A DNA stretch of 64,000 bases from Alphaproteobacteria bacterium. GTDB lineage: Bacteria > Pseudomonadota > Alphaproteobacteria > Micavibrionales > UBA2020. The translations under genes were made by a program, and so were the position numbers. Location: positions 222,226-286,225 of the forward strand of contig JAIXUW010000292.1 of NCBI GenBank assembly GCA_027483355.1, written 5' to 3'. Shown here one piece after another: positions 14,466 through 49,294 of the stretch. The notes under the pieces were generated by a model. It did not search any database. It saw nothing but the letters and a program-made list of their open reading frames with translations, and was not told the DNA's origin. Each line of letters opens with the position of its first letter. The first letter of the stretch is position 1.

Positions 14466-17400
14466 TTACATTTTACGCATGCGAGTAGTCGCTGTCTTAG
14501 AATTGTAATTACGAGCTCTGGGTGCAGTGGGAGGAGACGGCGGAGGCGTTATTTTGCTTCTCTTTGCGGGCACAGGAGTTCTGCAGCATAACGAATGGAA
14601 TGCGACAGCCACGATTCCGAAACCTGTAATAGCAACAATCACGTATAGAGGAATCAACGCCGTGGGCTGAGCGGGCGGCGTGACGGGCGGCGTCGGAGGT
14701 CCAGTCTGCAATACAATCGTGTGGAATTCTCCCAGTCCGGACAGAAGAATGGAATTTCCGATTTCAGTCGACAATTCTCTGACTGTGACAGGGAATCGAA
14801 CCGATCCACTTGTGTCCGTGTAATCAATGCCATTCACGGCAATGCCGACTTGACCTGAACTATTACGACCCCATGTTTGGATTTCGAACACGGCCTGTGT
14901 CTGACCGGGCTTGTACAATAAAACATGTTCGACTCCGCACCACACGCCGCGAGTGGCAGTCGTATTCGCGACAATTTGAGGCACTGAACTGTATGCCAAT
15001 TCCGCAACTGTTTTGTTCTGACCCAATTGACCGTATTGGTTGGAGCCCCAGGCGTACACGGAAGACGTGTCCTGAGAAATATACAGTCCGTGCGCGCCTC
15101 CTGCGCAAATGTATTGGGTCTGAAGTTGAACGTTGACAGAATCTGGCGGGATACCGAATGCAATCATGGGCGCGTTTCTATTAGGCGACATTTCAGTCGG
15201 ATCGGCCAATTGGCCCCTGTCGTTATTTCCCCACGAGTAGACGACGACAGGGGATCTTTCAGTGACCGCGAACATGAAATCGGAACCGCATGAGATGAGT
15301 CGAATTGACTCGGCTAACATGACTAGTCTGGGCGTTTCCGTGTTGTTATACGACCCGATTCCCAACTGGCCCTTGTCATTCGATCCCCAAGTCCATACCG
15401 CGCCGTCAGTCGACAAAATAGCCGAATAGTTGGCTCCAGCGCACGCTTGTTTGATTTCGAATAATACAGACACGCGCACACGCGAATTGGGAAGAGCCAC
15501 GGCGGCGCGTTCGGTTCTCGGAGCCAGATCCGCGACTCCAAGCTGCCCGAAATCGTTATTACCGTATGTGATTACAAAATCTTCAATCACATTAGGCGGA
15601 TTCTTGGTGACCGTTCTCACGACGGCTACACTGTGCTCCTGACCTCCTGCCAGAAAGTTGATCGCCACATTACGCGTGTTGGAAAACCAAAACTCGATTC
15701 TCTGGCGAATATAATCGAGTTGCGGTGAAATGCGAGGAAGAGGCACGGACACGGTCGTGTTCGACGCCGGGTCAAGCTGAGCGTTTAGGTTTGAACCCCA
15801 TTCGTAGTATCTTTCGCCGGACAGTTTCATAAGATTGTGTTTGTAGCCAACTGCCAGTACTTGCAGGCTTTGAACGGAATTCACGTCGACAAGTTGAATG
15901 AGAGGGTCGATCGAGGACGAGTTGGAGATGACTCTACCCAGTTGACCTAAATCGTTACCACCCCATGAACCGAGATAGTTGCCGTTGACGTTGGGTGGTT
16001 CGATCGGCGGTGGAACAGGCGGCGACACTGGTGCATTTTGAGGAGGCGCGACTGGCGGGGTTTGAGGCGGTGCGACTGGTGGATTCTGGGGAGGCGCGAC
16101 TGGTTGACTTTGAGGCGGAGCGACCGGAGGTGAAACAGGCGGAGCCACTGGCGGCTCTACGGGTGGGGAAACTGGCGGTGCCTGAGGCGGGGCTACTGGT
16201 GGTGACACAGGCGGAGCCACGGGTGGTGCCTGAGGAGGTAAAACCGGAGGCGCGACTGGCGGTTCCACAGGTGGCGAACCTGGAGGAGCTTGTGGTGGTA
16301 ACACAGGAGGGGCGACAGGCGGGGAAACTGGAGGTGCAACAGGCGGGGAAATTGGAGGTGCCTGAGGTGGTAAAACCGGAGGAGCAACTGGCGGCTCTAC
16401 TGGCGGTGCGACAGGGGGAGCCACAGGAGGGGCGACTGGAGGTGACACAGGTGGAGCCACGGGAGGTGCCTGAGGCGGTTCTACAGGCGGAGCCACAGGA
16501 GGCGCTTGAGGAGGCAAAACTGGAGGGGCAACAGGAGGTGTTTGTGGAGGCGAAACTGGTGGAGCGACAGGCGGTGATTGTGGAGGCGAAACCGGAGGCG
16601 CGACAGGCTGCGCTTGAGGCGGTAAAACTGGCGGCGCAACCGGTGGTTCTACAGGCGGTGCCACAGGAGGTGACTGAGGTGGTGAAACCGGGGGCGCGAC
16701 TGGTGGAGCCACTGGAGGTGCTTGAGGTGGTGAAACTGGCGGGGCCACTGGTGGTGCTTGTGGCGGTGAAATCGGTGGAGCTTGAGGAGGCGAAACCGGG
16801 GGCGCAACTGGCGGGGATTGCGGCGGATTCTGGGGAGGCGCGACTGGTGGGGCTAAAGGCGGTGCTACAGGCGGCGAAACCGGAGGCGCAACAGGCGAGG
16901 CGACCGGTGGGGCCACAGGAGGGGCTTGAGGCGGATTTTGCGGAGGAGCCACAGGAGGGGCCTGAGGCGGTGAAACTGGAGGCGCGACTGGCGGTGCAAC
17001 CGGGGGTGCAACTGGAGGTGCCTTGGGCGGAGCGACCGGAGGCGCGACAGGTGCCGCTTGAGGAGCCAAAACCGGAGGTCCAACCGGAGGCGCGACCGGA
17101 GCGGGAGGTAGCACGACCGTTCTAAACCTCCAAACGTCATTATAGTATGTTGTCGGAGTTGTAAACGCGTTCTGCCCGCCTATTAAACCCGTGTTAATAT
17201 TCGAAGGTGAGAAAGGAGATCCTCCGGGCTGTACAAACACTTCGCCGGAAAGTCGCCCGAACGGGAAGTTTAACGCCGAGAACACATTCGGCGCCGGGTA
17301 TGTCCCAAGTGCGTTGCTTGCATTTCCTGCCATCCAAAAAAACTGATCCGAATCATAATCATACGCCCACAGATGCCCGCGGGCGGTTGTTTGGGATTGA

Positions 17401-18449
17401 ACCACCATGTACAACAGGCGCGAATTTGCATTGACCGTGAACATGGCACCGTTTGAATATATTAGCGCAGGATTTCCAAGTGCGTATTGAAGCGTGAAAA
17501 ATTCGGCTGGGCACGGCGCAGCAGCTCCAGCGCCTCCTCCTCCGACCCACGTCCAAATGTTTGTTGCTAAAGTATACAAAAACATGAAACACGAATTTGT
17601 CGTACTTGACGTAGTATACATGGCCAAGTGCGTCGTGTTGTAGGGCGTGTAGGTGCATTGTTTTCGATTACAAGGCAATGCGATTGTTCCTGCGTTCGAA
17701 ACGCGTTTTGTTCCAGCATTTGGAGTCGAAACACCGTCATCTCTCATACATGCGAACAATAAAGTAGAACTGTTGAATCTGTACATGTCCGATCTCAGTG
17801 CACCTCCGGAAGTGGAAGAGCGCCCACCGCTCAGATAAACAATATTATCCAGCGCCGCGGAAACATATCTCATATGGAATACAGCGTATTCGGCTCGTCT
17901 GCCGAATCGAGGAACTCCACAGGAAGGTCCCTGTGTAGTTTGAGTTATAAAAATCCACGTAGGCGACAATAAAGACGTGTCGAGTCTCCACAAATCGCCT
18001 TGGACAGATCCTGCTGAATTATATCCACCATATAAGAATAAAAATCTGTTTTGAAACGTCCAAGCGCCCATGGAGTAACGCGAGCCGATGGAGCTAGGAA
18101 TAGATATCGCGACATTTGTAGCATTACTGCCCGTGACCCAATTCCACGAAGAAGTTGTTGTTTGATATCGAAAAGTGTTAGCGTAAACATTTACACCGTT
18201 CCTGCCGCCCATAATATACACGATAGAATTATTGGGATTTGTGTTGTCCGTAAGCGTCCACAGCGCAAACTCAGACCGCGTAAATGGCGTATTTGGAATC
18301 GCATTCGATGCTCCGCCGCTCAAGTACGCCCATTGTGGTTGAAGCAATGATATTGGCTGCGATACACCAAAGCCGAGAAGCACGGCAACTGAAAAAATCA
18401 CAACCGTTACACATTGGTACACATACCACGCTTTTTTGTGTGTATACAT
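14466..18449 (-). CDS. type-I membrane protein: Kelch-like propeller + (PPV/APP)n stalk + 7-blade RCC1-like propeller + TM anchor
   Basis: ORF 14466..18602 overlaps the stop of the upstream gene; the ATG at 18449 gives a signal-anchor (VTVVIFSVAVLLGFGVS).
- Kelch-like units: VYIMGGRNG...W, LFLYGGYNSAGSVQGDLWRLD, VYLSGGRSS...MYRF.
- About 375 aa of PPVAPPVSPPQAPPVAPP repeats.
- Seven RCC1 signatures: WGGNDLGQLG, WGSNLNAQLD, YGNNDFGQLG, WGSNDKGQLG, WGNNDRGQLA, WGSNQYGQLG, WGRNSSGQVG.
- C-terminal TM segment LIPLYVIVAITGFGIVAVAF plus a basic tail. Confidence 0.8.
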   Translation of the reverse strand: MYTHKKAWYVYQCVTVVIFSVAVLLGFGVSQPISLLQPQWAYLSGGASNAIPNTPFTRSEFALWTLTDNTNPNNSIVYIMGGRNGVNVYANTFRYQTTTSSWNWVTGSNATNVAISIPSSIGSRYSMGAWTFQNRFLFLYGGYNSAGSVQGDLWRLDTSLLSPTWIFITQTTQGPSCGVPRFGRRAEYAVFHMRYVSAALDNIVYLSGGRSSTSGGALRSDMYRFNSSTLLFACMRDDGVSTPNAGTKRVSNAGTIALPCNRKQCTYTPYNTTHLAMYTTSSTTNSCFMFLYTLATNIWTWVGGGGAGAAAPCPAEFFTLQYALGNPALIYSNGAMFTVNANSRLLYMVVQSQTTARGHLWAYDYDSDQFFWMAGNASNALGTYPAPNVFSALNFPFGRLSGEVFVQPGGSPFSPSNINTGLIGGQNAFTTPTTYYNDVWRFRTVVLPPAPVAPPVGPPVLAPQAAPVAPPVAPPKAPPVAPPVAPPVAPPVSPPQAPPVAPPQNPPQAPPVAPPVASPVAPPVSPPVAPPLAPPVAPPQNPPQSPPVAPPVSPPQAPPISPPQAPPVAPPVSPPQAPPVAPPVAPPVSPPQSPPVAPPVEPPVAPPVLPPQAQPVAPPVSPPQSPPVAPPVSPPQTPPVAPPVLPPQAPPVAPPVEPPQAPPVAPPVSPPVAPPVAPPVAPPVEPPVAPPVLPPQAPPISPPVAPPVSPPVAPPVLPPQAPPGSPPVEPPVAPPVLPPQAPPVAPPVSPPVAPPQAPPVSPPVEPPVAPPVSPPVAPPQSQPVAPPQNPPVAPPQTPPVAPPQNAPVSPPVPPPIEPPNVNGNYLGSWGGNDLGQLGRVISNSSSIDPLIQLVDVNSVQSLQVLAVGYKHNLMKLSGERYYEWGSNLNAQLDPASNTTVSVPLPRISPQLDYIRQRIEFWFSNTRNVAINFLAGGQEHSVAVVRTVTKNPPNVIEDFVITYGNNDFGQLGVADLAPRTERAAVALPNSRVRVSVLFEIKQACAGANYSAILSTDGAVWTWGSNDKGQLGIGSYNNTETPRLVMLAESIRLISCGSDFMFAVTERSPVVVYSWGNNDRGQLADPTEMSPNRNAPMIAFGIPPDSVNVQLQTQYICAGGAHGLYISQDTSSVYAWGSNQYGQLGQNKTVAELAYSSVPQIVANTTATRGVWCGVEHVLLYKPGQTQAVFEIQTWGRNSSGQVGIAVNGIDYTDTSGSVRFPVTVRELSTEIGNSILLSGLGEFHTIVLQTGPPTPPVTPPAQPTALIPLYVIVAITGFGIVAVAFHSLCCRTPVPAKRSKITPPPSPPTAPRARNYNSKTATTRMRKM
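15990..17125 (-). repeat. coding 9-bp-periodic proline-rich repeat (PPV/APP/PPQ units)
   Basis: The DNA is a long degenerate GGNGGNNNN-type periodic tract. It keeps the antisense frame open too (spurious 376-aa ORF 15995..17125). Confidence 0.85.
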
Positions 18450-18598
18450 GAATAGTATGTGTTTACTAGTATTATGAAAATATTTTACATGGGTAAAAAC
18501 TAGGCGAAAAATAAGTGTGAACTCGCGCGAGGGGTTGTTCCAAAAATGGAAGGTGTACACACACATACACCCCCCGGGGTGGGCGGGCGCGCACGCTT

Positions 18599-21500
18599 TC
18601 ACTCAACTCGGCGTTTTTTGGATTTGTCGTCTTCATCAGTGCTTGCATCAATTCTCTTCCGCTTGACAATGCGTTGTTCTGGAACAGCGCACATTTGATT
18701 CCAGAATTTAACGCGGTCGGGACCCACTTCGCTACTTTCGTCGAGACACAGCGCCAGTATTCGCAGACAACTATGTACGTCATTTTGAAGTTTTTGCACG
18801 ACCGCGAGCTTGTCGCCAGTGAAGTATTCGGTAAGCCGACTTGATAAAGGTATATCTCCTTTGAGAGGAGTTTCGACCGATTCTTCAACCAACCATTGCA
18901 ACATGTCGACATATTGCTTATTACGGTAGAGTTTGTCTACACAAGCCCTGCAAAATGATTTTACAGGCGCTTTGTCTGTCAATTTATCCAACAGCCTCAT
19001 GTAAACCGGGTTTTGTTGCGACAGCGCGTTGGTCGCCCATTCTCTGACTTGTAGGCATGTCATGTTCAAAACAACATTGAAAAGCGGTTTTGCTTTTGCC
19101 AGTAAGATGATCTTAAGTATAACGTCGTTTCTTGTCCTTCGTATAGTAAAACATTTGTCCATTCCGGAATTGATCCAAAGCCGATGCAACAAGTTATTCG
19201 AGTCATATTCAAATCCAGGCACTATTCGCATCGTTTTTGAGCCAATAGCAACCATGGGATAGGCATCCGCAAAGGCATCGCGCTCCAAATCGTCACTCTG
19301 CCATTGATTCACAGCGGAGCCTATATCCATTGCATATGAGGACAGAGGAAAATGCACAAGAAATCCAAACGCCGCGTCGCAGTATACTGACGGTAGACCC
19401 GATTTCAGCGTGGAATAATCCGAGCCGCGAACATAATTGATTTTCTGTCCTTTGTAGTCTCTTCCTTGTATCTTTGCATAATCAGACAACCCGACGCAAT
19501 ACACACCACAAAGGTATAAGTATTGTTGCAAGGTGTTGAAAAACACCTTTGCGGTCTGGCCGTGCGATGTCATCTCCCATCGATTTTGAAAATAGTCAAT
19601 CTCGGCCGTGATAAGATAACATCGGCGATCGTTTGGGTTGATCAGATTTTTCACCCATCCTTCTTCACTAGACATCTCGTCTTCGTAGTCCGGATAAAAT
19701 TTGTTCCATTCTGAAGAATAAAGTTCAAGTACGCGACAGAAAAAGCCGTTGATGCTACTAAACGAAAGATCAGGGTTTTGGTCTCTATCTTGGGTCCATT
19801 TTCCAAAGTTCAAATTCATCGGGCTAATAAAGGTCTCGACGTAGTTACTTGTTTTGTCTCCCCGAAGCTCTAACAGTAGCAACTGATCACCTGAAGTCTT
19901 GACCCATTGAATCTTTGAAGAATAGCTGCCCAATTCATGCGTGTCGAACAGTGGTATCCCTATAGCGCGTTCAGTTTGATTGAAAAAACGACTCGGCCCT
20001 TGAATGGTTTCCTTGTCCGAATTTTTCAAATCGTTTACGTATTCTCGAGTGTTCACAGGCCCGGCTATGGGGAAGGGCGTTCGGTCAAAAAAGACTCCAT
20101 ACACGCACTGCATAAACGCAGTGGCTTTGAACTCGTCAAATTTGCCGCCGGCGGAGCTCATATCAAGCCTGTAAATTTTTGCGCATATCGAAACGACGGC
20201 GTATCCCATGGCCGCATCGAGAATAATTCGTCCAGTCTCATAACGCGATCGGATCTGCGTTTCGCGTATTTTTGCGTTTCTATAAGTTCTTGAAAAAAAC
20301 GGGTAGGCGCGACGAGCATAGTCGGCAAACTGTGCATTTTCGTCAACGGTAAATTTACGTTCTTCCGGTAGGTTAAACTGTGGGAGTAGTGGAATGTTTG
20401 CCTCGAACATCTGGGGCAAGTCCAGAAACCCGTTGTTGCACGGCTTTCTGTCGTATGTCAGAGCACCCGTCTTAAACAACCGCAGCTGCTTATCGTCCAA
20501 ATGGTAGACTGGAATAAACGTTTTGGCACATTCTACAATTCCGACTTCGTCGGCAAGTTTTGCAAGTACAGGAAGCACGGCATACACGCATATGTTGTTT
20601 GGCCGTACCACAACTGTTTGAAATTCAGACAAACTTTCGATGAGTTCTTCTACCGTATGGCATTTTCTTTCCACTCGGGCGCCGACGGGCACGTAGCTGT
20701 TGCCGGAAAACTGCAACCAGTTAACCAGCACTACCGTTTTTCCATTTTGGTCTTTCTGATAATGGACGCTGAGTATACAAACGACTTTTGGTTCGCGCGC
20801 AACATAAGGCGAAATAATGCTAGCTGTGGGGATGGATCGCCGGCTTTCAAAGGCCAGTTCAAAGCCGAGGAATTGCTGGTTCTTTTCGGGGGCCGCGTGG
20901 TTATAATCCACAAACTTTCCCAGATTGAACAATCGAGTAAACGGTGCATTTCCATTAGCAGAGGCGATTGTCCATTCCAACAAATTTTCGAATGATGGAA
21001 CGCATCCCTGGACCGCCATTTGACGCCACTCAGGCGTGTTAAACGCGTTTGTATCGTCAATCAACATGCTTTGAAAGAGTTTTTGCCCCTTCTCGGACAT
21101 CATATATTCTCCAATGGTCCACGTTCGCGCGTAATCGGGTGAAAACCGCGTAAGCGGCGCCGATCGATCTGAAGGAGCTACGCGTGACATCAAGATCCAA
21201 TGATATTTTCGCAATTCCACGTACTCGTTGTTCTTCAAGTCATCTTTTTGCTTCAAGTCCAAGTATCGAACTGAAAAATCGTTCGATATACAATGCAGTC
21301 TCAAGAGCGTATTGTCCGTGTAAGTCGAAGTTCGAACATAATGCTTGTTGATGAGTTGCAAAGGGATCGCCTTAGAGTGACCAATTCGAACGTTGTCGTC
21401 CAAAACATCGATTTCGCCAAACTCATTTTTTTCCCACGGTCGTTTATCAAAAATTCCATTTGTGGGTTCGAATACAGCAGTGGCTTGTCGTGGCATACCA

Positions 21501-43275: not shown

Positions 43276-45356
43276 ATGGGGGCTCAAACCCCATTTTCGG
43301 CCGTCGCTGTTTTTTTTGAATCTCTGCCGGAAGAACTCAAATTGACTGTGCGTTAAAACCCATTGCTTCTAAAACGTGTTCTGGCACTGACTCTTTGTTT
43401 TACGTATCTAGATCTTCTTCCTTTTGCCGTTTCGCAGTTTGAAAGCAGCGAGATTGGTCTGTAAAAAGTACGGTTCTATGCGCAAAAGTGCCAAACAAAG
43501 CCGTTGTTTTTTTTGTGACCTTGCACCTCGTATAGATGGTATCGAATTTCAATCGATCAAAGAATTTGGAAAAACTTGCATGAAAGATTCTTCGGGATAC
43601 CTCATTTCCCGCTGTACTCGACACACGACTTGGCGGAACAGCCCAAAAGCGTACCCAAAGCTGGCGCGAATACGTCGACGTTTCCTTCCAGCCCTCCCAT
43701 CATCTCATCTTCTGTGGAACCAAAACATGTTTTTTCATACGAGCCCGGCACGGACCGCGAGACGATTTTTCGTCGGTTGCATCGTGAATACAAACGCGTG
43801 AACAATCTCCAAGAGCGGTTGCTTTGGGCTATCGAAGGCCATTATTTTGAGCTTACAAAGCGGCTTGTGGAGAAAAAGGGCGCCGTGATCGAACGCGACA
43901 AGCCCAAAATGAGCTACGGTGCTCTGTACGCCGCTGCGAAAATTGGATGCGGACAGATCACAGCTTATTTGATTAATAAGGGCGCTAATATAAATGCATT
44001 GGCGGATGACAAATCGACACCGTTGTACATCGCGGCACAGAACGGGTGTATTGACTCTTTGAAATTGCTCATCAACGCCGGCGCTTCACTGGAGTGTGTT
44101 TTCAAGTACGTTTTCAAATTTTCATGTAAATATGCGATCTAACACGACTTTTGCACCGATAGTGATGGCTACACACCCCTCTACATTGCGTCCCAAACAA
44201 ATCGGGTGGAAGCCGTTCGACTTTTAGTCGACGCCAAAGCAAAAATCAATGCTTGTTGCTCTCAAGGTTCCACGCCTTTGTATATCGCCGCTCAACAGGG
44301 CCATTTGGAAGTCGCAAAGGTTTTAGTGTCCGCCGGCGCTAACATTGAATCCAAATTCAAAACGGGGTTTACTCCAATCTATGTCGCATCAAGAAACAGC
44401 CATTCGGCGATTGTAGAGTATTTGATTGAAAAAGGAGCGTCGGTCAACGCCAGTGACGGTGACGGATCGACGCCTCTTTACGTGGCATCCCAAAAGTGCG
44501 GTTTTGCGATTTTTATTCCAAACTACAATTGCATTATTCTAACAAACGTGTAAGCGCAGTGGCAGCATAGAATGTGTGCGGGTACTGCTTCAACACGGAG
44601 CTGATCACAGAATCGCCTTCATGAATGGATTCGCTCCGCTTTATATTGCTAGCCAAAATGGACACGCGGAAATTGTAGATCTTTTGTGCAAATCAGGCTC
44701 AGAGGTGAACCGCGTTGCGGACAACGACTTGACAGCGTTATACGTGGCCTGTCAAAACGGGCATGTCGGGGCTGTCGCGCGGCTGCTCAGCCACGGAGCC
44801 AATGCAGATGTTGTGTTCGACGCGGGTTATAGGCCACTTTACATTGCTTCCCAGAAGAACCATGTCGAAATCGTGGAATTGCTTGTCTCGCATGGCGCGC
44901 CTATCAACGCAGTCACGGGCAAGAAGGCAACCGCGTTATATGTTGCATGTCAAAAGGGCAATTTTCAAATTGTCAAATATCTTTTGGAACATGGAGCGGA
45001 TCCAGCGTTGCGGTTTCAAGTACGTTTTCGACGCCGCACTCCGGTTCTTTTTTACTTTCCATAATATCCAACACCTTATTTTCCCCTAGAACGGATTTAC
45101 ATGTCTGCATATTGCCGCGCAAGAAGGCAACGAAAGAGTAGTCGAGTATTTGCTAGAAAACACGAAAATCAACCCTTCAACAAAGTCGAATGATCAGAGA
45201 ATGGCAGCAGAAGTGGCAAAAAAGGCGACTATAACAAAAATAATCAGGGAGAAAATTGAGCAAATGTATACAAAGCCGGCACCCCATCCTGTGCAAACGC
45301 AGGCACTACAAAAACCTCGGTGCATGTGCCGAGAGTGTGTAGTCAGACGGTCTTAG
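43276..45356 (+). CDS. F-box + ankyrin-repeat protein, multi-exon (about 594 aa)
   Basis: Proposed exons are 43276..43347, 43412..43650, 43692..44105, 44163..44495, 44560..45019 and 45090..45356, totalling 1785 nt in frame.
- Exons 1+2 give MGAQTPFSAVAVFFESLPEELKLT|IFFLLPFRSLKAARLVCKKY, a canonical F-box.
- Later exons give about 11 ANK repeats (TPLYIAAQNGH..VV..LL..GA).
- Splicing restores the repeat register at every junction.
- The ORF-track pieces 43576, 44206, 44576 and 45150 all start on TTG/GTG, not ATG.
- The exon 2/3 junction is tentative. Confidence 0.75.
43348..43411 (+). other. spliceosomal-type intron (64 nt)
   Basis: GTGCGT...cactgactc (CTGAC about 20 nt from the 3' end)...TCTAG. 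It removes an in-frame TAA and joins the two halves of the F-box in phase 0. Confidence 0.7.
43651..43691 (+). other. candidate very short intron (41 nt, tentative)
   Basis: A frame change from the 43424 frame to the 43576 frame is required between about 43600 and 43700. GTACCC...tttccttccag gives the right phase. The alternative 43614..43660 (47 nt) also fits, so this is not resolved. Confidence 0.3.
44106..44162 (+). other. spliceosomal-type intron (57 nt)
   Basis: GTACGT...tctaacac...gatAG. It joins ...LECVF + N + DGYTPLYIASQ across a split AA|T codon. Confidence 0.8.
44496..44559 (+). other. spliceosomal-type intron (64 nt)
   Basis: GTGCGG...ttctaacaaac...gcgCAG. It joins ...TPLYVASQ + N + GSIECVRVLLQHGAD. 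Confidence 0.8.
45020..45089 (+). other. spliceosomal-type intron (70 nt)
   Basis: GTACGT...atccaacacc...ttttcccctAG (good polypyrimidine tract). It joins ...GADPALRFQ|NGFTCLHIAAQEGN in phase 0. Confidence 0.8.
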
Positions 45357-45372
45357 ACACATTGTAAACAAA

Positions 45373-46353
45373 ATGGATGCTGTTGTTCTTATTACATTGC
45401 TAGAAACAATTGATTTTGCTGCTAAAAAGCACTCCAAGCAACGCAGAAAGAACGCCGATGCCTCGCCCTACATCGGCACGCCCTCTTTGCATTTTTTTCG
45501 CGCGCGTGTATGACACAGCAACGCCTAACACTTTTATGTTCAAACACAGAGCATCCGATTGGCGTTGCCAAATTGCTGGCAGCGGTTGGTGGTGTCACCG
45601 ACATTTCTACGCTCCAAGCCGGCGTATTACACGATACGCTTGAAGACACGGACACTACATTTCAAGAATTGCAGTCCAAGTTTGGCGAGAAAGTGGCCAA
45701 AATTGTGCGGGAAGTACGTACTTTGAGTTTGGCGTTGCCAAGAACGCTAAGAACGGCTCGTTTTCAGGCCCTTGTTTCTTACAAATCCCACACAGGTTAC
45801 CGACGACAAGAGTCTGCCCAAAGACGAACGCAAGAGACTTCAGATCTCACATGCTCCTCATATGTCGACCGAGGCCAAGCTCGTAAAGCTCGCCGACAAG
45901 CTGCACAATCTTCAATCCCTTCAGATCGAGTCTCCTGCTTTATGGTCTAAATCTCGTATTCAAGGATACTTTGCGTGGGCGCACGCTGTCGTCGCTGGTC
46001 TTCGAGGCACAAATCTTTGGCTCGAATCCGCGTTGAAGCAAGTTTTCTCTGGATCGTTCAAGTGCAAAGAGGGCATGTTTCCTACTTTGCCCGAAAACAC
46101 AGAGGCTGCTCTCGAAAATTATCTCAAGGAAATGAAAGAAGTGGATCAGACGGAGAAAGCGCCAAAAATTGTGGGCATCGTCGTTGGTAACATGTGCTTA
46201 AAAACAAAGCCGTGCCAGCATGTTGTTGAAATGGTTTTTGCCGACGGTCGCAGAGAGAAAAAGCGCATGGACGCCGCTGATGTCGCTTTGGCCTTCAAGA
46301 ACGCAAACCTGACGATTCCCGATCATTTTGTAAACGATGTAGCTCACTTTTGA
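45373..46353 (+). CDS. MESH1/HDDC3-like HD-domain hydrolase ((p)ppGpp-hydrolase/small-alarmone-hydrolase fold) with extra C-terminal ~60-aa domain, 3 exons
   Basis: Exon 1 is MDAVVLITLLETIDFAAKKHSKQRRKNADASPYI.... Exon 2 is HPIGVAKLLAAVGGVTDISTLQAGVLHDTLEDTDTTFQELQSKFGEKVAKIVRE. Exon 3 is VTDDKSLPKDERKRLQISHAPHMSTEAKLVKLADKLHNL.... The order matches metazoan MESH1 as I recall it: (DFAA.KH..QRRK....PYI.HP.GVA, LLHDT.EDT, EVTDDK.LPK.ERKR.Q, KLVKLADKL.NL). The C-terminal 46165..46329 is an added domain. Confidence 0.8.
45506..45549 (+). other. first intron of the HD-hydrolase gene (boundaries ambiguous: 45506..45549 GT-AG, or 45476..45549 GC-AG)
   Basis: The acceptor aaacaCAG|AG is preceded by gcctaacac. 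The only in-phase GT donor (GTGTAT at 45506) leaves a 10-aa insertion (GTPSLHFFRA) inside the conserved PYI.HP motif. A GC donor at 45476 would give PYIEHPIGVA, matching the family motif. Confidence 0.5.
45714..45795 (+). other. spliceosomal-type intron (82 nt)
   Basis: GTACGT...cttac...cacaCAG. It joins KIVRE|VTDDKSLPKDERKRLQ in phase 0 and restores the conserved EVTDDK motif. Confidence 0.85.
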
Positions 46354-46457
46354 TAAAATGCGGAAGATGCAACCGCTGTCCCCCTAAACTGGCAAGTGAA
46401 AAAAAAGTGGTCAGTTTCGCGCCTCTCAATAGAGTCAGTTCTCAAGTTTTGTCTAAA

Positions 46458-47027
46458 ATGCTACGCCAATTGTCCATATTCTTTATCAATCTATCATACG
46501 TGTGCTCGTATGCGCCCATTTTCATCATACCAGTCTTGCAACTGGGTCTGCCGTACGCTGCGCCGCTTCTGGCGCACTTTTTGCTTCGCTTGGACTTGTG
46601 GACTATATTCATGGCTCATTTCGCAGTGAATATCATGCTCGGCGTTATCTTTGGCGTGTGGGTGTTCTACCTTATGAACGGTTGTTGGGAGAAGCACGAG
46701 AGGGAGCTCCAGCGAGAGAGCTGGTGTCCCAAATCCTGCGTTCATCCGCGCAGAGTGGACCATTTTGCAGTCACCCGATTCTTTTTCATGTGGACGTGGG
46801 TGTTATTCACAATCTCACTCTCTTCGCTTGCAAACTTTGCCACCACAGTCGTGTTGGACAACATGTACAGTAACGCGACAGAAAACAGAGTCGGCGGCTA
46901 TGCTGCCCTCGCTTTTCTCGCGCCGTTTGCCATGTTAGTATCAAGAGGTGTGCTGGAAATGGGTCTGTGTATTTACGAGATGGATTTTGCACGCGAAGTG
47001 TGTGACGAAGACAAAGTTGTGAAATAA
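46458..47027 (+). CDS. multi-pass membrane protein (189 aa)
   Basis: ORF 46350..47027 starts on TTG overlapping the preceding stop; ATG at 46458 (MLRQLSIFFINLSYVCSYAPIFIIPVL...). At least four hydrophobic segments. No motif recognised. Confidence 0.6.
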   Translation: MLRQLSIFFINLSYVCSYAPIFIIPVLQLGLPYAAPLLAHFLLRLDLWTIFMAHFAVNIMLGVIFGVWVFYLMNGCWEKHERELQRESWCPKSCVHPRRVDHFAVTRFFFMWTWVLFTISLSSLANFATTVVLDNMYSNATENRVGGYAALAFLAPFAMLVSRGVLEMGLCIYEMDFAREVCDEDKVVK

Positions 47028-47119
47028 ACGATTTACAGACACCCCACAGTTTTTCGAGTGGATGACGCGGCACTAGAGTTCTTGTTCGACCCAGTCGCTT
47101 ATTTTTCGCCGCGTGAAAC

Positions 47120-47350
47120 ATGGAACCGAGAAAAGTAGCCCAAATCATACCCAGTGAACTGTGCCGTTCAACTTTTCCGTGCCTACATTCGGTTAAAATT
47201 GTCTTCCAAGACGGAACTGTGGAAACCAAAACAATGGATGGCAACGACATTGCTCAACTCTACCTTAATGCAAACATACAAGTCCCCGCGCACTTTGCCA
47301 TGTATATATCGTCTCCAACGTTTAGTGCAAGCGGTCTCTCTAAACACTAA
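47120..47350 (+). CDS. small protein (76 aa) homologous to the C-terminal domain of the HD hydrolase
   Basis: MEPRKVAQIIPSELCRSTFPCLHSVKIVFQDGTVETKTMDGNDIAQLYLNANIQVPAHF aligns with KIVGIVVGNMCLKTKPCQHVVEMVFADGRREKKRMDAADVALAFKNANLTIPDHF. About 24 of 55 positions are identical by my manual alignment. Confidence 0.55.
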   Translation: MEPRKVAQIIPSELCRSTFPCLHSVKIVFQDGTVETKTMDGNDIAQLYLNANIQVPAHFAMYISSPTFSASGLSKH

Positions 47351-47376
47351 CAATAAACTCTTATGTGCTCGAAAAT

Positions 47377-47448
47377 GCCGGCGTGGTTCAATTGGTAGAA
47401 TACCTGGTTGTGGCTCAGGCGACGATGGTTCGATTCCACCCGCTGGCA
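47377..47448 (+). tRNA. tRNA-His (anticodon GTG)
   Basis: Manual cloverleaf:
- acceptor gccggcg/cgctggc (one G-U)
- D arm gttc-aattggta-gaat
- anticodon arm cctgg-ttGTGgc-tcagg
- 4-nt variable region
- T arm gatgg-ttcgatt-ccacc (one A-C mismatch, B-box GGTTCGATTCC)
- discriminator A
There is no encoded G-1 or CCA, which is the eukaryote style. Confidence 0.7.
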
Positions 47449-47453
47449 TTGCG

Positions 47454-47530
47454 GACGGCTTAGCTCAGGTGGGATAGTGCTTCATCACGCGCGTATGGGG
47501 AGGTCGCTGGTTCGACCCCAGCAGCTGTCG
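47454..47530 (+). tRNA. tRNA-like gene with abnormal 11-nt anticodon loop (isotype undetermined)
   Basis: Manual fold:
- acceptor gacggct/agctgtc (one G-U)
- U8-A9
- D arm gctc-aggtggga-tagt (3 bp)
- anticodon stem cttca/tgggg (5 bp, two G-U)
- loop tcacgcgcgta (11 nt, contains the palindrome ACGCGCGT)
- variable region aggtc
- perfect T arm gctgg-ttcgacc-ccagc
It starts 5 nt after tRNA-His and is followed by a T5 run. Confidence 0.5.
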
Positions 47531-49163: not shown

Positions 49164-49294
49164 AATAACGCAACGTAACGCAGCGCGACGCAACGCGGCG
49201 CACCAGCGCGCAAAGGACCGCAGCGCAGCGCAACGCAACGCGACGCACCGCAACCCACCGCAGCGCAGCGCGACGCACCGCAGCGCAACGCAGC
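49164..49294. repeat. degenerate pentanucleotide array (CGCAR/CGCGA/CGCAC)n, about 26 units
   Basis: cgcaa cgtaa cgcag cgcga cgcaa cgcgg cgcac ... cgcag cgcaa cgcag, with strict 5-nt phasing visible across thirteen 10-nt blocks. It lies in the divergent spacer between 48983(-) and 49394(+). It creates three spurious overlapping minus-strand ORFs (AALRC-type). Confidence 0.85.

Follow-up and report, generated by a model that had tools for sequence, protein, structure and literature searches.

The MESH1 gene and its C-terminal extension

We analysed a stretch of 64,000 nucleotides (hereafter the window), i.e., positions 222,226 to 286,225 of contig JAIXUW010000292.1, which carries a gene for MESH1 (also known as HDDC3), a hydrolase of the HD family. 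As listed in Table 1, the gene is read with two short introns, and its predicted product continues at the C-terminus into a small domain marked by two cysteines and two histidines (hereafter the CCHH domain), a second, stand-alone copy of which is encoded 0.8 kb downstream. An ankyrin-repeat gene is located upstream. An open reading frame (ORF) for a membrane protein separates the two copies of the domain, and a tRNA-His gene and a tRNA-like gene follow directly; the order of these parts, from MESH1 to the tRNA genes, was already described in an earlier reading of the letters alone (hereafter the sequence-only reading). What the locus presents is a known enzyme in a new architecture, together with a sizeable domain family that lacks a Pfam entry.

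Table 1. Features of the MESH1 locus, with their positions in the window and the evidence for each
Feature	Position	Strand	Evidence
Ankyrin-repeat gene upstream of MESH1, three short GT-AG introns	43576..45356	+	Frame-switching ankyrin ORFs; splice sites from sequence
MESH1 gene, whole, two introns, spliced product 274 aa	45373-46353	+	
MESH1 exon 1 (M1 to first base of codon E35; KKHSKQRRK, SPYI)	45373..45475	+	ORF, sequence reading; end set by gap-free homologue alignment
MESH1 intron 1, 74 nt, probable GC-AG (GCACGC...ACAG), phase 1	45476..45549	+	Inferred from protein alignment
MESH1 exon 2 (HPIGVA ... LHDTLEDT ... KIVRE)	45550..45713	+	Sequence reading, alignment
MESH1 intron 2, 82 nt, canonical GTACGT...CAG, phase 0	45714..45795	+	Sequence reading
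MESH1 exon 3: remainder of HD core, tail (to ~46152), polar linker, CCHH domain, stop	45796..46353	+	Continuous ORF, alignment
Fused CCHH beta3-alpha domain, residues 210-274 (core noted earlier, 46165-46329)	46156..46350	+	BLASTP, family HMM, AlphaFold, conservation
Membrane ORF, 189 aa, 4-5 hydrophobic helices, between the domain copies	46458..47027	+	ORF list, Logan-contig gene call, hydropathy
Stand-alone CCHH paralogue, 76 aa (C15, C21, H23, H58), P0121	47120..47350	+	Family HMM, BLASTP, protein database
tRNA-His (GUG)	47377..47448	+	ARAGORN; Rfam RF00005, 58.1 bits
tRNA-like gene, 11-nt anticodon loop (UCACGCGCGUA)	47454..47530	+	ARAGORN 'tRNA-???'; Rfam RF00005, 31.1 bits (gathering score 29)

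The HD-hydrolase motifs that the sequence-only reading had listed, namely KKHSKQRRK, HPIGVA, LHDTLEDT, EVTDDK and KLVKLADKL, are all present, and the introns among them had gone unmentioned. The motifs are spread over three reading frames, and EVTDDK straddles the second intron, so that splicing would join ...VRE to VTDDK..., as in all homologues. For the first intron, splicing at a GC-AG pair would give PYI-E-HPIGVA, with no insertion relative to human MESH1 and all homologues, and the 5' site, GCACGC, resembles GTACGT, the local consensus of the four neighbouring introns. Residue E35, encoded by the codon that this intron would split, was common only to the window MESH1 and its nearest relative P0001 (described below), i.e., 2 of 121 sequences, and the position was occupied by Asn in all but one of the other 119. 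We adopted the GC-AG model because of the gap-free alignment, the GTACGT-like 5' site and the E35 shared with P0001. A GT-AG alternative at 45508-45551 was rejected, since it would insert 11 aa where every homologue aligns without gaps. The probable occurrence of a GC-AG, and hence non-GT, spliceosomal intron in a giant-virus-like genome, suggested by the protein alignment and the rare shared residue, is an observation in its own right.

The spliced product matched the Pfam family HD_4 at 72.1 bits (cut-off 27.2; E 5.7e-20) and the Pfam family HD at 35.1 bits (cut-off 22). It had 6967 significant homologues, the named top matches being eukaryotic MESH1/HDDC3 proteins, and pairwise comparisons gave 58-65% identity to eukaryotic MESH1 over the core. 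When the PDB was searched, human MESH1 was recovered at E 4.7e-60 (3NR1) and 4.6e-59 (5VXA) in gap-free alignments over residues 8-174, in agreement with the MESH1-type assignment made earlier, whereas bacterial Rel/SpoT proteins and small alarmone hydrolases (SAHs) appeared in the same search only at E 1e-17 or worse, compared with ~1e-60 for MESH1. Residues H36, H62, D63 and D123 are invariant columns in alignment A3 and align to the metal tetrad (H...HD...D) of human MESH1, which we take to be H35, H61, D62 and D122 as described with the 3NR1 structure. The ED pair (E66/D67), R25, Y33 and N127 are also invariant in A3, and K26 is nearly so; the catalytic ED pair and the basic substrate-binding residues align to human E65/D66 and R24/K25, respectively, and LHDTLEDT and QRRK are conserved in both the PDB alignment and A3. 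No disabling substitution was found among the aligned metal-binding and catalytic residues, which speaks, at the sequence level, against the earlier concern that the HD domain might be inactive through substitutions that had escaped notice. These alignments identify the gene as a genuine MESH1/HDDC3 orthologue with an intact active site. The substrates of cellular MESH1 are the 3'-pyrophosphates of (p)ppGpp/(p)ppApp-type nucleotides and the 2'-phosphate of NADPH.

MESH1 proteins usually consist of a single domain of ~180-210 aa, whereas the window protein has 274 aa, owing to an added 65-aa domain that leaves the core unaffected. The sequence-only reading had pointed to a C-terminal extension; this stands for residues ~210-274, which by alignment are the only added domain, whereas residues ~175-205 (...FSGSFKCKEGMFPTLPENTEAALENYLKEMK) are an ordinary MESH1 tail, also present in one dictyostelid MESH1, in P0001 and in several unnamed metagenomic homologues. 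The best 120 of the 6967 homologues left the C-terminal domain uncovered, and none of them covered more than 75% of the query. Compared with MESH1/HDDC3 of known structure (3NR1, 5VXA and 3NQW), the window protein has the same metal tetrad and ED pair and likewise no synthetase domain, whereas it is distinguished by its giant-virus-like genome, the two introns, the ~30-aa tail and the extra CCHH domain.

The CCHH domain and its family

The fused copy, with C223, C229, H231 and H266 as putative ligands, and the 76-aa ORF were identical at 24 of 55 positions (60% positives, no gaps; BLASTP E 9e-18), which bears out the homology that had been counted by hand. The pattern given for both at that time, C-x4-P-C-x-H ... 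P-x-H-F, is correct in each copy. Only these two copies were detected in the whole window by tblastn. A profile hidden Markov model (HMM) built from other genomes only recovered the 76-aa ORF at E 2e-25 (84.8 bits) and the fused copy at E 3.8e-21 (71.1 bits). Both copies keep the C, P, C, H, H and F of the family, and the fused copy has V instead of I43. Judged by these matches, the 76-aa ORF is an unfused local paralogue of the fused domain. NCBI places its product, P0121, on a contig of 292,368 bp, and an identical 2.46-kb Logan contig was found in run SRR16126879.

Word-indexed protein searches with the domain returned the window's own two proteins and, later, nine, and the family became visible only by profile search. 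Specifically, an exhaustive HMMER profile scan of 1.84 billion representative proteins (clusters at 50% identity) placed the domain in 175 protein clusters at E<=1e-3 and in 18 at E<=1e-10. Among the listed matches, P0199 and P0223 were unrelated repeat proteins that failed a refined profile. The members are mostly stand-alone proteins of 60-90 aa or contain two to four tandem copies, and the domain is fused elsewhere to ankyrin repeats, a ZZ finger or DUF5661. Over 194 instances, the residues of the family signature, which is the pattern given above, were conserved as follows: C14 94%, P19 92%, C20 97%, H22 97%, H57 91% and F58 85%, with I43 at 91%. IMG/VR and metagenomes were also searched with a degenerate DNA pattern that encodes C-[LMIVF]-E-[ST]-Y-P-C-Q-H, which matched 34 loci in metagenomes and 7 in IMG/VR, every one of the latter on a GVMAG or UViG contig; loci such as L002/L003 and L004 have an ORFan-dense, giant-virus-like context. 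In the related-locus search of IMG/VR, neither the alignment of the two domain copies nor a 545-aa window ORF gave a match. Since clusters of domain paralogues are common in other loci (e.g., L029/L041 and L010/L020), two copies 0.8 kb apart need no special explanation.

Neither the window copies (E<=1 for the extension) nor 20 full-length members nor 68 domain segments were matched by a Pfam family, which upholds the earlier statement that the domain belongs to no known family; we gave no weight to a single weak match to the SWIM zinc finger, obtained at E 0.096 for 1 of the 68 members. A sequence search of the PDB with the domain gave nothing better than E 0.45. AlphaFold, supplied with a 68-sequence alignment, predicted the fused copy at pLDDT 89.2 and pTM 0.73 as a beta-beta-beta-alpha fold (strands 5-14, 21-28 and 33-39, helix 40-49 and a short helix 56-59), while a single-sequence prediction of the whole fusion (pLDDT 43.8) was unusable. 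Foldseek searches of the PDB with the domain model gave nothing at E<=1e-3, and the top match, a CCT-like domain of WNK1 (E 0.016, TM 0.42), was not accepted as a fold relative. When BFVD was searched with Foldseek, the matches were uncharacterised proteins of Edafosvirus, Faunusvirus, Sylvanvirus, Clandestinovirus, Fadolivirus, Orpheovirus, Medusavirus and Pandoravirus, the first five at TM 0.66-0.76 and 23-34% identity; the Fadolivirus match is an ankyrin protein. Members from giant viruses, such as A0A3G4ZUU5 (Edafosvirus), A0A3G4ZY24 (Faunusvirus) and A0A8F8KLT7 (Clandestinovirus), have the same signature, the same predicted beta3-alpha fold and stand-alone forms of ~70 aa, whereas fusion to an HD-family enzyme is seen only in the window. 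By these sequence and structure searches, the domain represents a giant-virus family that is widespread and unnamed, is missing from Pfam and has no relative of solved structure. The sequence-only reading had called the domain private, a description that has to be given up in view of the 175 clusters, the GVMAG and IMG/VR contigs, and the matching structures of named giant viruses.

The conserved C-x5-C-x-H...H is most likely a structural zinc site, two of the putative ligands flanking the beta1-beta2 hairpin of the model, one lying on beta2 and one in the C-terminal turn. A few family members, such as P0248 (790 aa) and P0264 (95 aa), have a signal-peptide-like N-terminus, and P0248 has, in addition, a C-terminal transmembrane segment.

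Given that the domain is located C-terminal to a hydrolase of the RelA/SpoT homologue (RSH) type, behind a polar linker, and contains conserved Cys and His residues, a regulatory role was also considered, in which it would sense a ligand or autoinhibit the hydrolase, with the free paralogue as a competitor. The model for such a role is the C-terminal region of long RelA/SpoT proteins (TGS, zinc-finger/CC and ACT/RRM), which is likewise small, Cys-containing and C-terminal to an RSH hydrolase. The resemblance is one of analogy, however. The Pfam scans of the extension and the 68 members gave no TGS, ACT or RelA C-terminal family, the order and size of the parts are different, and the family occurs overwhelmingly without an RSH enzyme, as single domains or arrays, which better fits a generic binding module. 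We consider a regulatory domain quite improbable. The CCHH domain probably mediates interaction or targeting; general recognition of a partner by the family would explain why the module is found alone, in tandem, or with ankyrin repeats or a ZZ finger.

Viral setting, viral relatives and the fusion

The window is tightly packed with long uninterrupted ORFs. When 33 of its products were scanned against Pfam, 27 had no match at E<=0.001, and the remainder comprised eukaryote-like RCC1/Kelch, Sina-RING, subtilase, kinase and dual-specificity phosphatase proteins in addition to the HD_4 domain of MESH1. Within the window, introns were seen only in the ankyrin gene (three, with the splice sites GTACGT...TAG, GTGCGG...CAG and GTACGT...TAG) and in MESH1 (two), and GTACGT was not enriched elsewhere (8 per strand, compared with 15 expected). 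Two of the ankyrin-gene introns begin with the identical string TTCAAGTACGTTTTC (at 44105 and 45019), an identity that duplication of a repeat unit along with its intron could explain. The setting is giant-virus-like and, in line with the virus-borne context proposed in the sequence-only reading, would be that of a large DNA virus of a eukaryote; the probability given below for the function of the fusion protein covers this assignment jointly.

If the segment with the ankyrin and MESH1 genes were part of a eukaryotic chromosome, or were an endogenised viral element, with introns of cellular origin, this would likewise account for the five spliceosomal introns in these neighbouring eukaryote-like genes and for the absence of any viral hallmark gene among the Pfam-scanned products of the window. 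Such an origin we regard as very unlikely, since the rest of the window is packed with uninterrupted ORFs whose products mostly have no Pfam match, GTACGT is not enriched outside the two genes, the domain family attached to MESH1 is found on giant-virus contigs, the sister MESH1 is encoded on a giant-virus contig of IMG/VR, and the source contig extends over 292 kb.

That sister, P0001, is the nearest MESH1 found (62-63% identity) and is encoded on IMGVR_UViG_3300031825_000001 (847 kb; loci L046/L047). In a neighbour-joining tree it paired with the window MESH1, followed by a group that includes the dictyostelid sequence. P0001 shares with the window MESH1 the otherwise unique E35, the C-terminal tail and an ORFan-dense setting, whereas its gene is intronless, the protein ends after the tail, and no CCHH domain is fused to it or present within +-6 kb. 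Full-length MESH1-like genes with 48-53% identity were found on several other IMG/VR contigs (L048-L052), one of them labelled GVMAG. Because several IMG/VR contigs encode such close MESH1-like genes, MESH1 seems to be a recurrent acquisition of giant viruses. A full-text literature search found no paper on MESH1/HDDC3 or alarmone hydrolases in giant viruses. Given that MESH1 governs NADPH and ppGpp-like nucleotides in eukaryotic cells, the viral MESH1 is a candidate auxiliary metabolic gene. As for the introns, their positions in the window MESH1 differ from those in fish HDDC3, and the dictyostelid and viral homologues examined are intronless; the comparison is compatible both with arrival of the introns with the host gene and with their later gain.

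MESH1 homologues that bear the tail end 0-6 residues after the motif corresponding to YLKEMK of the window protein, and from about this motif onwards the fused copy (..EVDQT-EKAPKIVGIV..) aligns with the very start of the 76-aa ORF (MEPRKVAQII..). The alignment fits an end-to-start fusion of adjacent genes, in which a stop codon and the spacer would have been lost. To place the fusion among related loci, we used a set of 45 loci (340 kb) that comprises 43 independent domain loci, the MESH1 locus L046 and the window's own sequence (L001). A MESH1 gene was present near the domain in none of the 43 independent domain loci (~338 kb), and the domain was present near none of 80 MESH1/SAH-like HD genes on viral contigs (846 kb, with flanks of +-6 kb). 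The sequence-only reading had named two results that would speak against it, namely a lack of conserved linkage between the domain and HD hydrolases in related genomes, and a match of the domain to a common known fold; the former is what we observed, the latter is not.

A fusion unique to one locus could have arisen by accident, the loss of a stop codon having joined MESH1 to the next small gene, with the two halves keeping unrelated jobs and the product being neutral or recent. The composition of the junction, i.e., a natural MESH1 end followed by a natural small-ORF start, is in keeping with such an event, as are the absence of the association from all other loci compared and the unfused state of the closest viral MESH1, P0001. 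It would less readily account for the retention of every conserved residue in both halves, for the unfused paralogue kept next door, or for the routine use of the module in fused form elsewhere, with ankyrin repeats or a ZZ finger. We therefore take an accidental fusion seriously while considering it somewhat unlikely.

The reading we favour, with a probability of roughly 0.55, is that a giant-virus-type DNA virus of a eukaryote encodes a eukaryote-derived and competent MESH1, fused to a generic zinc module that serves for interaction or targeting, with an unfused paralogue of the module adjoining. Under this reading, the two short introns would need to be spliced out, and the joining of the neighbouring small gene would have extended the MESH1 C-terminus by the CCHH domain. 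Like cellular MESH1, the MESH1 part would act on nucleotides of the (p)ppGpp/(p)ppApp type, removing the 3'-pyrophosphate, or on NADPH, removing the 2'-phosphate, and the CCHH module would leave this chemistry unchanged and tether or target the enzyme to a partner, either protein or nucleic acid, that is recognised family-wide. Several points weigh against this reading. The fusion is known from one genome only, the NCBI contig and the one Logan contig being identical, and because of this it may be selectively neutral. The removal of the MESH1 introns by splicing, above all that of the GC-AG intron, is something we infer. The window has no viral hallmark gene, as noted above, and no solved structure resembling the domain was found by Foldseek in the PDB. 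Furthermore, the two cysteines could form a disulfide instead of contributing to a zinc site; in P0248 and P0264, the signal-peptide-like N-termini would place the CCHH domain outside the cytoplasm, where one might expect a disulfide rather than zinc.

A more specific version, which appears distinctly unlikely, is that the family is a dedicated and hitherto undescribed set of giant-virus zinc-module adaptors, which in this virus serves to attach the eukaryote-derived MESH1 to a complex of viral or host origin. The free 76-aa paralogue would use the same site, either alongside the fusion protein or in competition with it. If so, the virus would control the NADPH/NADH balance or alarmone-like nucleotide signalling locally during infection, and the metabolic manipulation of eukaryotic hosts by viruses would gain a new layer. 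Irrespective of such a role, the family, which counts at least 175 clusters at 50% identity, lends itself readily to structure determination and to the search for partners, given its compact, confidently predicted fold with the CCHH signature.

Neighbouring genes and minor features of the window

The 189-aa membrane ORF between the two domain copies had no credible Pfam match, and no homologue of it was found in the 45 other loci. The start of the membrane-protein gene is overlapped in another frame by an alternative, Cys-rich ORF of 77 aa (MKKKWSVSRLS...CLKCYANCPY...; 46396-46629, + strand), which is probably spurious. As for the tRNA-His gene, the base before position +1 (47376-47377) is T, so that G-1, which is typical of tRNA-His, is not encoded and would need to be added post-transcriptionally, as in eukaryotes. 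The tRNA-like gene begins 5 nt 3' of tRNA-His and has good acceptor, D and T arms. Its anticodon loop, however, comprises 11 nt instead of 7, and the anticodon called there by ARAGORN has four bases. A tiny intron in the tRNA, a function akin to that of frameshift suppressors, or decay to a pseudogene could each account for this.

The sequence-only reading had combined the hydrolase, the supposedly private domain, the membrane protein and the tRNA genes into one unit for stress, translation or counter-defence, which might, for example, reverse the pyrophosphorylation of tRNA 3' ends. Some small alarmone hydrolases of the MESH1-like fold do reverse the modification of tRNA by toxSAS enzymes, and the genes are physically adjacent in this one genome. 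The adjacency is not repeated elsewhere, however: besides the lack of linkage between MESH1 and the domain described above, a tRNA was present in the flanks of only 1 of 36 domain loci, and none of the related loci encodes a homologue of the membrane protein. Moreover, no RelA/SpoT-type synthetase was matched by Pfam among the 33 window ORFs scanned, the direct neighbours of MESH1 being the ankyrin gene and the membrane ORF, and toxSAS systems are bacterial, whereas the window gene has spliceosomal introns and eukaryotic relatives. With a domain that is shared by 175 clusters, such a unit is highly improbable, and the idea of a tRNA-linked counter-defence module does not survive. Because no conserved linkage was found in other loci, the tRNA and membrane-protein genes beside MESH1 and the domain look like coincidental neighbours, and the membrane-protein gene probably has no functional link to the domain copies. 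Overall, what the sequence-only reading had observed was confirmed, and its interpretation was supported as regards the enzyme, the extra domain and the viral setting, but not as regards the private domain and the module.

Two repeat regions were observed elsewhere in the window. A 1-kb GC-rich island (16027-17039; 58.5% GC, GC skew +0.23) is located inside a 1378-aa RCC1/Kelch ORF (14466-18602, - strand) and consists of degenerate tandem repeats of 12, 24 and 36 nt, which presumably encode a low-complexity linker in the protein. In addition, ~25 copies of AACGC, also readable as a 20-nt unit, occupy 49167-49292 in an apparently intergenic position, and this repeat creates spurious 'ALRCVALRC' ORFs on the - strand.

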